64,000 nucleotides of DNA, taken from NCBI GenBank assembly GCA_965215005.1, contig CBDCCZ010000044.1, forward strand, positions 110,522-174,521. The letters are read 5' to 3'. Positions 12,015-36,473 of this stretch are shown piece by piece. This stretch comes from Kofleriaceae bacterium (lineage in GTDB: Bacteria > Myxococcota_A > Polyangia > Haliangiales > Haliangiaceae). The notes beneath the pieces are model-generated. The model saw nothing but the letters and a program-made list of their open reading frames with translations, did no database searches and was not told where the DNA came from. Position numbers and translations under genes: made by a program. How positions within the stretch are numbered: the first letter of the stretch is position 1; each line of letters begins with the position of its first letter.

Positions 12015-12168
12015 CGAGTACGCCGCCGCGGGTTTTCTGACCCAGAAATCCGCCGCCCCGATGCGGGGCAAGGGCGGCAGATTTCTGCTGCTCAGGCGCC
12101 GCGTTCGGCGTCTCCCCAAGCGATTGTTGTTTTTCGAGCGGTTCACGACTTCCGCCGTGAACCACGAG
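12015..12168 (-). mobile_element. 146-bp structured MITE-like element, copy 1 (12019-12164), flanked by a CTCG direct repeat
   Basis: Aligns over its full length with 22899-23044; CGAG at 12015-12018 and 12165-12168. Confidence 0.8.
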
Positions 12169-22765: not shown

Positions 22766-22855
22766 TACGGTTGCCGGGATGCTTAGCGATTTGGCCGGGC
22801 CGGCAAATGAGATAGCCACTTGAGCCAATTTGCACGGTCCTCTACTGTGCAGCGC

Positions 22856-25462
22856 ATGCAGCCTCCGCAACGCCACTCGACGTGGCTGATACGTCTAGTG
22901 GTTTACGGCGCAAGCCGTAAACTGCAAGCAAAGCAACAATCGCTTGGGGAGACGCCGAAGGGGGCACGTGAGCAGCAGAAATCTGCCGCCCTTGCCCCGC
23001 CTCGGGGCGGCGGATTTCTGCGTCACGAATCCCGCGGCGGCGTACTAGTCTCTGTCATTGGTCTTGCGGCTAGCATGGCCGCTTGTAGCGCGGGGTCGCC
23101 CGGCGATGGCAGTGACCTCGACAGCGAGCGCGCCGACGCTGAAGGGCCGGAGTATTCCATTCTCCGCCCGGGCAACCGCTACGCCACCGACCTTGGCGAT
23201 CGCTACCTCGATGAGGTCCAGCCGGCGCTGGCGGAGCGCTGCGCCGTTTGCCACGCCTGCACCAACGGTCCGTGCCAGCTCAACATGACCTCGTTTGCCG
23301 CACTCGAACGCGGCGTGAGCTCGAAGAATCCCTACAAGTTTGGCTTGTTCGACTCGTTCCCCACTCGCGTGAGCGACAACCGCACCCTGCAAGCGTGGCG
23401 CGACCTCGGATTCCGGTCGGTGTTGCCGCAGGGCGGGGATCCAAAGAAGTCGATTTTCTATCGCGCGCTCGAGCTCGGTGAGCGCAACGTTGCATCGACC
23501 GATCCCAACGCCGGACCGATTCGCACCTCGGTAGCTCGCGCGTTGGCGCAGGCTCACAACGAGGGCAAGTACAGCTGCCCGGTCAATGATGTGTCGTGGT
23601 GGTGGTTCAGCCTGCGCAATCCGCAAGGTGGAATGCCGTGGGGACTGCCGTCTGACGAAGACAACCACGAAGTGCTCGAGCGCTGGGTACTCGATGGCGC
23701 GCCGGGGCCCTCTGCGGAAGCTCTTGCGAGCATTCAACAGCCGCAAGTCACGCCGATGACTCAGGTCGAGCCGGTAACGATCATCGAATCGTGGGAGACG
23801 TTCCTCGGTGGCGACGATCTGCGCAGCCAGCTCGTAGCGCGTTACATATATGAGCACGCGTACTCGGCGAACATTCACTTCGATGAGAACCCTGGCGAGT
23901 TCTATCGCATCGTCCGCTCGCGCACCGCGGCGCCCGCGCCCATCGAGCTGATCTATAGCGACATGCCGCAGGATGATCCCGGACCCGGACGTGTGTACTA
24001 CCGTCTCGAGAAGATCGACCGCGTCATCGAGGGCAAGGTGCACGTCCCTTGGGAGCTCGGTCTCGACGATCTCGAGCACCTGCGCGAGCTCTTCCTCAGC
24101 GGCGATTGGAACGTGGGCTCACTGCCGGGTTACGCGAGCCGCAACCCCTTCGAGTATTTCGCGGCGATTCCCGCGCAGGCGCGGTCGCGGTTCATGCTCG
24201 AGAACTCGCGCATGCTGTATGCGCAGTTTGCCCGCGGGCCGATTTGCCTGATTCAGGAGGCCAGCTTTGCCGTCGATGAGCACTTCTGGATCCTGTTCCT
24301 CGATCCAGACTCGGATCCCACGGTTCTCGAGCCCAAGCTAGGACTCGATACTTGGGACGTCTTCTTCGACAAAGACGGCTCGCTCACCGCTAGCTTGCCG
24401 CTCATCGGCGACAAGTATGGTGAGCTGCTCTATCGTCAGGCCTTCGAGGACACGCTGCGGCGCCACAAGCCGGAAGGCCTTGGTGTGCAGGATGTGTGGA
24501 CCGGTGACGGCAAGTATCCCGACGCTTGGCTCACGGTGCACCGCAATCAGTACAGCGTCGATGTTCACAACACTCTCGACCGGCCCATCACCGGCACGCC
24601 CCGCAGCGTGTGGCTGATCAGCTACGCCAACTTCGAGCGGATGTTCTACAACGCTGTTACGCAGTACAAGTTTTGGGGGAGCGCCTTCCATCAAAACACC
24701 TCGTTTAGCTGGCAGATCTGGACGCGCACCGAAGCCGAAGACCTGTGGGCTTCGCTGCTTCCCGACCAGAGCTACCGCCAGATGCTTCGCGACCGCTTCA
24801 CCAGCTATGCGGGCAAGGTGTACTACAAGCTGTTTGATGACTACGCGCAGGGCCGGCCGTCGGCGAGCCCGGAGCTCACCACCGACGATGCGGTGGCGCG
24901 CGAGCTGTATCGCCGCATGGAATCGGTGCTAGGGCCCGCCGATCGACTCAACCATTGGCCAAGCAACCAGCTGCCTTCGTACATCGACGACTCCATCGAT
25001 GATGTTGAGGAGTTCGAGGCGGGTCTTCGCACTCTCACCAATCGCGAGGCGCCGTTTGCCCGCTACGTGCCCAACGTGGTTCATCTTCGCCTCGGGGGCC
25101 AGCATCTGTACTCGCTGGTCGTCGTGCGCGGATTCAAAGACAGCAAGATCATCAGCACCGAGAAAGCCGATCGCGCCCCTGAGCATGACTCGTTGCGCGC
25201 CGTTCCAGGAATGGTCGCCTATGAAGCGCACATGTTCGTCGATCTAGCCTTCGACGACGCCTCGGCGTTTCTCAATGAGTTGCAAGCGGTGGATGATTTG
25301 CCGGCTTGGAATGGCTTCTCCGATCGCTACAAGATCGGCCGCAACAGTCCGACGTTCTGGCCGTTTGTCGATTGGCTCCACGATTGGATGGAAGCCAACA
25401 CGCCAGTTCGAGCCGCACTCCTCGAGCTGCGCGTCTACGACAAGGACGAGCAAGCGTTCTAG
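22856..25462 (+). CDS. Fatty-acid cis/trans isomerase (Cti)-family c-type heme lipoprotein
   Basis: EVQPALAERCAVCHAC (CxxCH), PCQLNMTSF, LVARYIYEH, NPFEYFAAIP..RFML, RGPIC; lipobox MAAC; start uncertain because of an in-frame element insertion. Confidence 0.8.
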   Translation: MQPPQRHSTWLIRLVVYGASRKLQAKQQSLGETPKGAREQQKSAALAPPRGGGFLRHESRGGVLVSVIGLAASMAACSAGSPGDGSDLDSERADAEGPEYSILRPGNRYATDLGDRYLDEVQPALAERCAVCHACTNGPCQLNMTSFAALERGVSSKNPYKFGLFDSFPTRVSDNRTLQAWRDLGFRSVLPQGGDPKKSIFYRALELGERNVASTDPNAGPIRTSVARALAQAHNEGKYSCPVNDVSWWWFSLRNPQGGMPWGLPSDEDNHEVLERWVLDGAPGPSAEALASIQQPQVTPMTQVEPVTIIESWETFLGGDDLRSQLVARYIYEHAYSANIHFDENPGEFYRIVRSRTAAPAPIELIYSDMPQDDPGPGRVYYRLEKIDRVIEGKVHVPWELGLDDLEHLRELFLSGDWNVGSLPGYASRNPFEYFAAIPAQARSRFMLENSRMLYAQFARGPICLIQEASFAVDEHFWILFLDPDSDPTVLEPKLGLDTWDVFFDKDGSLTASLPLIGDKYGELLYRQAFEDTLRRHKPEGLGVQDVWTGDGKYPDAWLTVHRNQYSVDVHNTLDRPITGTPRSVWLISYANFERMFYNAVTQYKFWGSAFHQNTSFSWQIWTRTEAEDLWASLLPDQSYRQMLRDRFTSYAGKVYYKLFDDYAQGRPSASPELTTDDAVARELYRRMESVLGPADRLNHWPSNQLPSYIDDSIDDVEEFEAGLRTLTNREAPFARYVPNVVHLRLGGQHLYSLVVVRGFKDSKIISTEKADRAPEHDSLRAVPGMVAYEAHMFVDLAFDDASAFLNELQAVDDLPAWNGFSDRYKIGRNSPTFWPFVDWLHDWMEANTPVRAALLELRVYDKDEQAF
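22895..23048 (+). mobile_element. 146-bp structured MITE-like element, copy 2 (22899-23044), flanked by a CTAG direct repeat, inside the 5' end of the cti-like gene
   Basis: Same length and hairpins as copy 1; CTAG at 22895-22898 and 23045-23048. Confidence 0.8.
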
Positions 25463-31665: not shown

Positions 31666-31772
31666 CCAGTACGACACCGCAAGAGTCGTGACGCGTTTGC
31701 CCCGCTTCCGGGCGTCTCCTTCATCGACCGTTGCTTTCTAGCGGCTCACGACTTCCGCCGTGAAACCACCAG
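31666..31772 (-). mobile_element. 99-bp short variant of the MITE-like element, copy 3 (31670-31768), flanked by a CTGG direct repeat
   Basis: Shares the 5' GGAA hairpin, GGAGACGCC and the 3' CGTA end; lacks the central long hairpin; CCAG at 31666-31669 and 31769-31772. Confidence 0.72.
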
Positions 31773-36071: not shown

Positions 36072-36148
<77 letters not shown>

Positions 36149-36234
36149 AGAAAGGGTTTCTATGTACTGCGGTTTTGCGGCCTCGTCGATACCGCGCAGC
36201 CACTTTTGCGCCGCTGACGCATAGCAGCGACCAT

Positions 36235-36311
<77 letters not shown>

Positions 36312-36396
36312 CAAAGGAGACGCGCGCCGATCAGACGACGTGCTGTCACCGCACAGCTCCGACAGGTGCCGACTTATCATTTATCAAGGATCGTAA

Positions 36397-36473
<77 letters not shown>

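Follow-up and report, generated by a model that had tools for sequence, protein, structure and literature searches.

A two-hairpin mini-element of a Kofleriaceae bacterium is probably an IS630-type MITE with degenerate terminal inverted repeats

A short multi-copy element in a Kofleriaceae genome

We analysed a 64,000-nucleotide stretch (the window) of a Kofleriaceae bacterium, whose assembly (the host genome, G000) comprises 6.2 Mb at 65% GC and is 92.8% complete. A first-pass annotation had described three copies of a structured element at 12019-12164 (minus), 22899-23044 (plus) and 31670-31768 (minus), all beginning with TGGTT and ending with CGTA. We found all three at these positions, with these ends and with the brackets that had been described: CTCG/CTCG around copy A, CTAG/CTAG around copy B and CTGG/CTGG around copy C. 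In the register used below, in which the element extends one base further on each side, the features are as follows.

12018..12165, minus: copy A, 148 bp (G...C), between divergent genes
12148..12165, minus: left imperfect terminal inverted repeat (TIR) of copy A, first 18 bp, overlapping hairpin 1 (GGAA loop)
12018..12035, minus: right imperfect TIR of copy A, 18 bp
12166..12168, minus: left flank of copy A, C + TC, with TC the putative duplicated dinucleotide; the target, CTCG, is non-canonical
12015..12017, minus: right flank of copy A, TC + G, with the putative second copy of the dinucleotide
22898..23045, plus: copy B, 148 bp, flanked by C-TA ... TA-G (TA at 22896-22897 and 23046-23047)
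22900..22923, plus: hairpin 1 of copy B, 10 bp, GCAA loop
22951..23043, plus: long bulged stem of copy B, whose 3' arm is the right TIR and which holds the inner hairpin 2 (22976-23020)
31669..31769, minus: copy C, 101 bp, of a second subfamily; inner hairpin deleted; flanked by C-TG ... TG-G

Copy A lies 22 bp ahead of 12191, the most upstream of the possible starts of the following ORF, and copy B is in frame within the open 5' part of ORF 22820-25462, the true start of which may be downstream. Two more decayed fragments of the element lie in the window around 38000 and 25500 (G000:C44:148424-148485 and 135985-136037). An Rfam search of the window matched the element to no described family; three tRNAs alone scored above threshold, their genes lying at 36075-36473 on the minus strand.

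The genome-wide count showed a family far bigger than the window trio. By blastn, the host genome holds 50 near-full-length copies, and a profile search of the 6.2 Mb returned 166 matches, fragments included. Copies diverged from the consensus by 7% on average, with no identical pair among the 50. We conclude that the short multi-copy element is real and was mobile in the past. The search for long, autonomous versions with the ends of the mini-element found none in the host genome. The proposal of a non-autonomous element served by an enzyme encoded elsewhere was supported; the element is 148 bp long, lacks a transposase and is multi-copy, with no long version in the genome.

The host genome also contains short forms that end after about 53 nt, or after hairpin 1 (about 34 nt), at a CTAG-like site; these are either alternative right ends or a shorter subfamily.

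C3:91026, C3:117878, C38:79082, C12:144124, C44:78572; C26:7064, C54:153588, C61:88253: short forms in G000

Flanking sequences point to a probable TA duplication inside CTAG

The first-pass annotation had read the brackets as a 4-bp CTNG target duplication, with each copy carrying its own direct repeat. This is true of the window trio, but it does not generalise: equal flanking 4-mers were found in 14 of 50 copies. At position 1 of the 4-mer, eight of the 50 deviated on the left only and six on the right only; at position 4, the figures were 2 and 18; at neither position was any deviation shared. All shared deviations were central (TC/TC in copy A, TG/TG in copy C, and one further copy at position 2). 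We then counted single ends in the host genome, leaving out tandem or nested ends (10/78 left, 14/76 right). Position 4 deviated more often on the right (22/62 ends) than on the left (4/68; p=2e-5), and CTAA occurred seven times on the right and never on the left. Four other families, described below, gave 15/62 on the right and 2/62 on the left (p=0.001), with left position 4 of the G006 family scored against A. There, A predominates at position 4 on the left and G on the right, and none of 16 copies had equal 4-mers.

Because outer deviations are never shared while central ones are, a 4-bp duplication is rejected, and the arrangement C-TA-[G...C]-TA-G fits. Judged from these flanks, the duplication most likely comprises TA alone, the middle two bases of a CTAG target, the consensus of which is roughly palindromic (CGN-CTAG-TCG). 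With a G as its first base and a C as its last, the element gives a CTAG at either junction and so mimics a 4-bp duplication. The central positions are themselves asymmetric. Position 3 deviated at 14/68 left versus 27/62 right ends in the host genome (p=0.008, a value inflated by decayed right ends), and position 2 at 22/62 left versus 8/62 right ends in the other families (p=0.006). These asymmetries, together with one junction in a kinase gene, are also compatible with a CT|NN crossover.

Elements of the IS5 and IS701 families follow a 4-bp rule, duplicating YTAR or CTAG. The reading closest to the original view of the flanks would be a MITE of an IS5/IS701-like DDE family whose true 4-bp duplication has since decayed. 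Such a history would account for the equal 4-mers of all three window copies, and at 7% divergence the copies are old enough to decay. MITEPsy1 of Pseudomonas syringae, which duplicates CTAG/YTAA (part of PMC3189936), provides a parallel: like our element it has a CTAG target, imperfect terminal bases and a length of about 100 bp, but it differs in its 4-bp duplication and IS5-like TIR. We nevertheless hold this reading to be extremely improbable, given how few copies have equal 4-mers and the one-sided occurrence of CTAA; the G006 family already largely refutes it, and the G and C at the very ends fall within the register of the TIRs.

The suggested check for empty sites was successful for one copy. 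When its flanks were joined, one paralogous stretch aligned without a gap over 200 bp, and a second was free of gaps across the junction, each with a single 4-mer. In contigs of three sequencing runs from one study, no joint skipped a single copy among the joints listed, which is not evidence.

The element ends are imperfect inverted repeats resembling those of IS630

The ends had also been described as not inverted. Once both boundaries are shifted outward by a base, to G...C within the TA, they are imperfect TIRs: the consensus left and right ends matched at 10 of 18 positions in the host family, and at 11, 13, 12 and 10 in the G175, G088, G061 and G006 families. Shuffle p values ranged from 0.01 to 1e-4, and offset 0 was the best of nine in each of the five families. 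Three of the five share ancestry; the end sequences of G175 and G006 differ and still match. Identity per copy is lower in the host (8.5/18); copy B scored 7/18 and copy C 6/18. By sequence, then, the element has imperfect TIRs, and these resemble the TIRs of the IS630 family.

Tenzen and Ohtsubo reportedly described, in 1991, a preference of IS630 for TA within CTAG. Transposition in the family duplicates TA (part of PMC2170065). The host carries a resident IS630 (NF033545 match, E 1e-73), with one intact copy and frameshifted ones.

G000:C14:184019-185541 (L246): resident IS630, intact copy
C6:55892-58311 and C21:67490-69012: further resident IS630 copies
C4, C18, C40: left ends of the resident IS630

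This element has a perfect 14-bp TIR inside C-TA..TA-G, forms a head-to-tail tandem sharing CTAG, and adjoins the left end of the mini-element at two loci. Its TIR matched the right end of the mini-element at 11/18 positions and the left end at 5/18. Other IS630s of the class have the same C-TA..TA-G flanks. A PF13358 search of further copy-bearing genomes found IS630 in G175 and G088, with no CTAG at the G175 locus, and found none in G546, G006, G019 and G061.

A closer match came from outside the class. When the TIR consensus was turned into a search pattern, it matched three metagenome sites and one in a further genome, three of these being short CTAG-bounded elements. The end of one metagenome match (L274) in turn matched four cyanobacterial plasmid sites (of seven records), all of them the termini of a single kind of element, flanked by C-TA..TA-G. 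Two of these elements are complete, with perfect TIRs, on Nostoc flagelliforme pNFSY03 and Chroococcidiopsis pA (L303, L304). Their ORFs match IS630 (NF033545) and DDE_3/HTH; the NF033545 match falls below the curated cut-off because the gene is split into two ORFs. The TIR of L304 matched copy A at 13/18 positions on the left and 11/18 on the right, against a background of 0 (at least 13) and 0.2% of 13,034 genomic CTAG flanks. Positions 7-16 of the cyanobacterial TIR, its core, are identical to the host consensus left end (10/10), and the right end of the mini-element has the same first four terminal bases. There is some circularity in this likeness, the mini-element itself having supplied the search pattern; nothing in the search route, however, required that an IS630 with the flanks that had been predicted should come up.

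The short elements L274, L275, L277 and L273 share the TIR core and lie on unrelated contigs, one of them cyanobacterium-like; elements of this type suggest a wide MITE group tied to the matching IS630 subgroup. In genome G014, a classical 170-bp TIR MITE (L259:778-953) shares CTAG with an adjacent IS630, and its TIR matched the consensus right end of our element at 13/18 positions.

The split HTH+DDE_3 subgroup of pNFSY03 and pA thus has the same C-TA...TA-G flanks and TIR core as the mini-element. The mini-element differs in lacking a transposase, in TIRs of its own that are only about 55% alike where those of the IS630s are perfect, in that each TIR is part of a local hairpin, and in its GC-rich, myxobacterium-like host. 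With 7,870 of 8,000 scored candidates, the matching subgroup is a large one, yet a profile made from 60 of its members found none in the 92.8%-complete host assembly or in the fetched myxobacterial loci; the assembly contains just the distant IS630 with a different TIR.

Taken together, we consider it likely that the mini-element is an IS630-type MITE moved in trans into the TA of CTAG. A transposase supplied in trans would bind the imperfect 18-24-bp TIRs, excise the element and insert it at the TA of a CTAG site, with TA being duplicated. We infer the enzyme, the cut geometry and the mode, cut-and-paste transposition. The subterminal core is preserved at the left end and the terminal bases at the right; by analogy with Tc1/mariner biology, these may be determinants of binding and of cleavage. 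Counting against the IS630-type reading are the missing subgroup, the 5/18 left-end match of the resident IS630, arrays of one polarity and the lack of identical copies. It is common for MITEs to persist after their transposase is gone, and repeats are lost in assembly; the element is possibly orphaned now.

Two covarying hairpins

The claim of compensatory changes in a hairpin with GNRA loops was borne out. When 24 rows from two families were aligned, 96% of cells paired and 11 of 28 pairs changed on both sides, against 40-43% pairing in slid controls; these figures are inflated, as the rows are related and the structure was fitted on the same alignment. Compared with shuffles, copy A folded with z -5.65 on the element strand and -4.02 on the other, and copy B with -7.00 and -4.50. 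The proposed strand-favoured fold with a second hairpin therefore stands for copies A and B; copy C lacks hairpin 2 and its folding is not unusual (z -0.94).

Selection on the structure had also been proposed. The fold is indeed conserved and strand-biased; its part as a recognition signal for the mobilising enzyme is hypothetical. As for MITEs generally, the hairpins are most likely kept through tolerance or processing in host transcripts, probably because copies sit in transcript 3' ends and reading frames. Palindrome-correcting template switching can also yield compensatory changes, and the fold may instead be kept by mutation of this kind.

We also considered that the element may be an IS630-derived MITE lineage in which the folded single strand, as RNA or ssDNA, has taken over some of the recognition, leaving the TIRs to degenerate; movement would pass through an intermediate that is structured or circular, perhaps with another partner. 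This would explain the covariation, arrays that are exclusively head-to-tail, the persistence of the family across the class and the missing cognate transposase. We regard it as unlikely. Were it true, the family would time and again have supplied myxobacterial proteins with 50-residue inserts, and only if the fold, not duplex TIRs, drives movement would interest in the element be high.

Insertion at gene ends, in reading frames and in polar arrays

With a simple gene caller, 24 of 62 full copies lay on the stop codon of a neighbouring gene. The net gain was most often 150 bp, or 50 codons (27/50 copies), and frame 0 was open in 25/50 copies. A 150-bp gain with one open frame means that survivors lie on stop codons, between genes or in frame. 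Five well-preserved copies sit well inside predicted genes, in frame and in the same orientation, and two G175 copies are likewise in frame. One insertion is in a kinase gene whose tandem paralogue lacks exactly 50 codons; its junctions read CCAG on the left and CTCG on the right where the paralogue has CTC, and a CT|NN crossover accounts for them no less well than a TA duplication. Another is in a GNAT acetyltransferase of 190 residues, compared with mostly about 140 in database homologues, and one clean 50-residue gap appeared in all 9 homologues aligned (9 of 104). As the element length is a multiple of three in 3/5 families only, we do not claim selection on length.

About ten end-to-end junctions were head-to-tail and none was tail-to-tail. 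Such arrays may result from loss of unstable inverted junctions, from unequal recombination or from a circular intermediate.

Polar arrays are one of several features that would suit a REP/PATE-like ssDNA element, moved by an HUH Y1 transposase with CT cleavage, an AG guide at the hairpin foot and a circle. There would then be no true duplication, with one CT and one AG coming from each partner. TnpA-REP cleaves at CT, guided by GTAG (part of PMC8266576). The hairpins at both ends with strand-specific G-T pairs, the copies truncated at internal CTAG-like sites, the central asymmetry, the kinase junction and the Y1 genes of the host genome are all in keeping with this mechanism. We judge it quite improbable all the same. 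No Y1/RAYT match was found in the copy-rich genomes G175 and G546, whereas 5/6 element-free congeners have one, although a REP-like palindrome of GTAG type in G175 (L243, G175:C5:76650-76821), in a genome with no detected RAYT, indicates that orphan elements are possible. No element ends were found around the Y1 genes, save one inserted copy. The copies showed no bias in orientation relative to replication, and hence no lagging-strand bias (51:36, p=0.13). Lastly, a Y1 mechanism leaves the TIRs of five families and the shared central dinucleotides of copies A and C unexplained.

Five near-identical Y1 HUH genes of about 220 aa (L001-L005, on C25, C3, C17, C4 and C46 of G000) encode proteins with a basic N-terminus of WGGKR type and are preceded by a conserved palindrome, forming a RAYT-like family also found in G061. 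A single long Y1 gene (L022, G000:C31:39067-40009) lies amid its own short repeats (TCGGGGCTGTCG-like).

Circles also feature in mobilisation by IS110, which would be RNA-guided with a 2-bp core, the internal structure being a small RNA as in MITEPpu9/ssr9. MITEPpu9 is a precedent, with an AG crossover and minicircles (part of PMC12288879); IS110 genes are present in G175, G088, G006 and G019, and at one G088 locus, 11 bases upstream of the gene are equal to the junction of the G088 mini-element. We find this explanation highly improbable: two Pfam models and tblastn found no IS110 in the host genome, the best match of IS110 non-coding regions to the covariance model was E 0.3 over 22 loci, no loop matched donor or target in bridge-RNA geometry by eye, and the target consensus is short. 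One IS110 group (L139/L146-L151) has upstream non-coding regions of about 200 nt that resemble bridge RNAs.

Two further candidates were rejected. An IS91/rolling-circle partner was dropped, as a Y2 transposase occurs in 1/5 carriers, and an ISAzo13 derivative because none of ten loci from an ISAzo13 search matched the TIR motif. A six-frame scan for short TnpB, serine recombinase, RT and GIY-YIG protein motifs found nothing; the scan is insensitive, its DDE motif having missed the known IS630. The host genome also holds an abundant IS66-like element of about 2.5 kb (23 regions) and an IS3-like element in three places.

Relation to known small elements

RUP, Correia/NEMIS and ERIC are classical TA-duplicating bacterial MITEs. 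The mini-element resembles these and the G014 L259 MITE in being 100-200 bp long, non-coding, probably TA-targeted, intergenic and multi-copy with stable stem-loops. However, classical MITEs fold end-to-end via near-perfect TIRs, whereas the mini-element forms two separate hairpins, is GC-rich and occurs in head-to-tail arrays. With REP/REPIN/BIME elements and their RAYT, and with MITEPpu9, it shares hairpins next to an NTAG tetranucleotide, tandem arrays and a location at gene 3' ends; it differs from them in having TIRs, in lacking a GTAG tag and in that no partner association was found.

Rickettsia palindromic elements (RPEs) are structured sequences of about 150 bp that lie in frame in unrelated genes and add a conserved peptide (part of PMC10969869). 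The mini-element is RPE-like in length, structure and in-frame insertion into genes. It differs in sequence and phylum, in that a minority of copies are intragenic, and in that a candidate transposase family and a target rule can be named.

The family is apparently undescribed. It probably belongs with the IS630-type MITEs, as a variant whose TIRs have degenerated and which has two covarying hairpins and in-frame insertions like those of RPEs. Our literature search, which left most subscription papers and ISfinder outside its scope, found no description of it. The main text of bioRxiv 10.64898/2026.10.21.760802 contains none of the terms Myxococc, Polyangi, MITE or CTAG, and its supplements could bear on novelty. 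Should the IS630-type reading be correct, Myxococcota-like genomes would gain a lineage of MITEs, that search having found none there. The reading would also mean that a TA-duplicating IS630 MITE can pass for a TIR-less element with a 4-bp duplication; looking TIR-less, such MITEs would be missed by TIR-based finders. Finally, peptide insertion in frame, as seen with RPEs, would have a second example, this one GC-rich, whose origin can be tested now that a candidate transposase family is named.

Distribution of related families

Related families are present in six other genomes (G175, G546, G006, G019, G061 and G088). A blastn search against 60 relatives returned no match. A hairpin pattern led to a Nannocystineae MAG, where it found two loci; 16 matches were counted in that MAG. 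With a covariance model, copies turned up in 3/150 other genomes of the class, and in a phylum-wide draw in 1/150, a repeat of one already found. G175 has about 30 full copies and its congener G546 many, while six other congeners had none; G006 gave 18 matches and G019 four. Common to all families are CTAG-like flanks, a hairpin directly after the left flank, an A-rich linker and then a long bulged stem, the core of which is conserved. Viral contigs scanned with patterns gave no match, save one with two matches lacking the partner end; one element-pattern scan of metagenomes gave no match, and plasmid blastn with the whole element gave one chance match.

This distribution bears on a further explanation, namely that an enzyme of an unrecognised kind, host-encoded or of a new family, reads the folded single strand and the TIR likeness is ancestral only. 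The four copy-bearing genomes with no detectable IS630, the strong covariation, the class-wide persistence of the family and the polar arrays would all agree with such an enzyme. We think it very doubtful: loss of the transposase before its MITEs and loss of repeats from assemblies are common, and the scanned neighbourhoods of copies had no candidate gene in common. Genes beside copies were housekeeping or unassigned, and among 150 neighbour ORFs (out of 220 called in G175, G006/G019, G061 and G088) the sole recombinase-type match was an XerC/D-like gene about 760 bp from one copy.

Sites orthologous between G175 and G546 are too diverged for empty alleles to be read at base level. At one site where G175 has a copy, G546 carries a different stretch of about 170 bp with CTAG-like bounds and hairpins (L215:249-409), possibly a second family using the same site.
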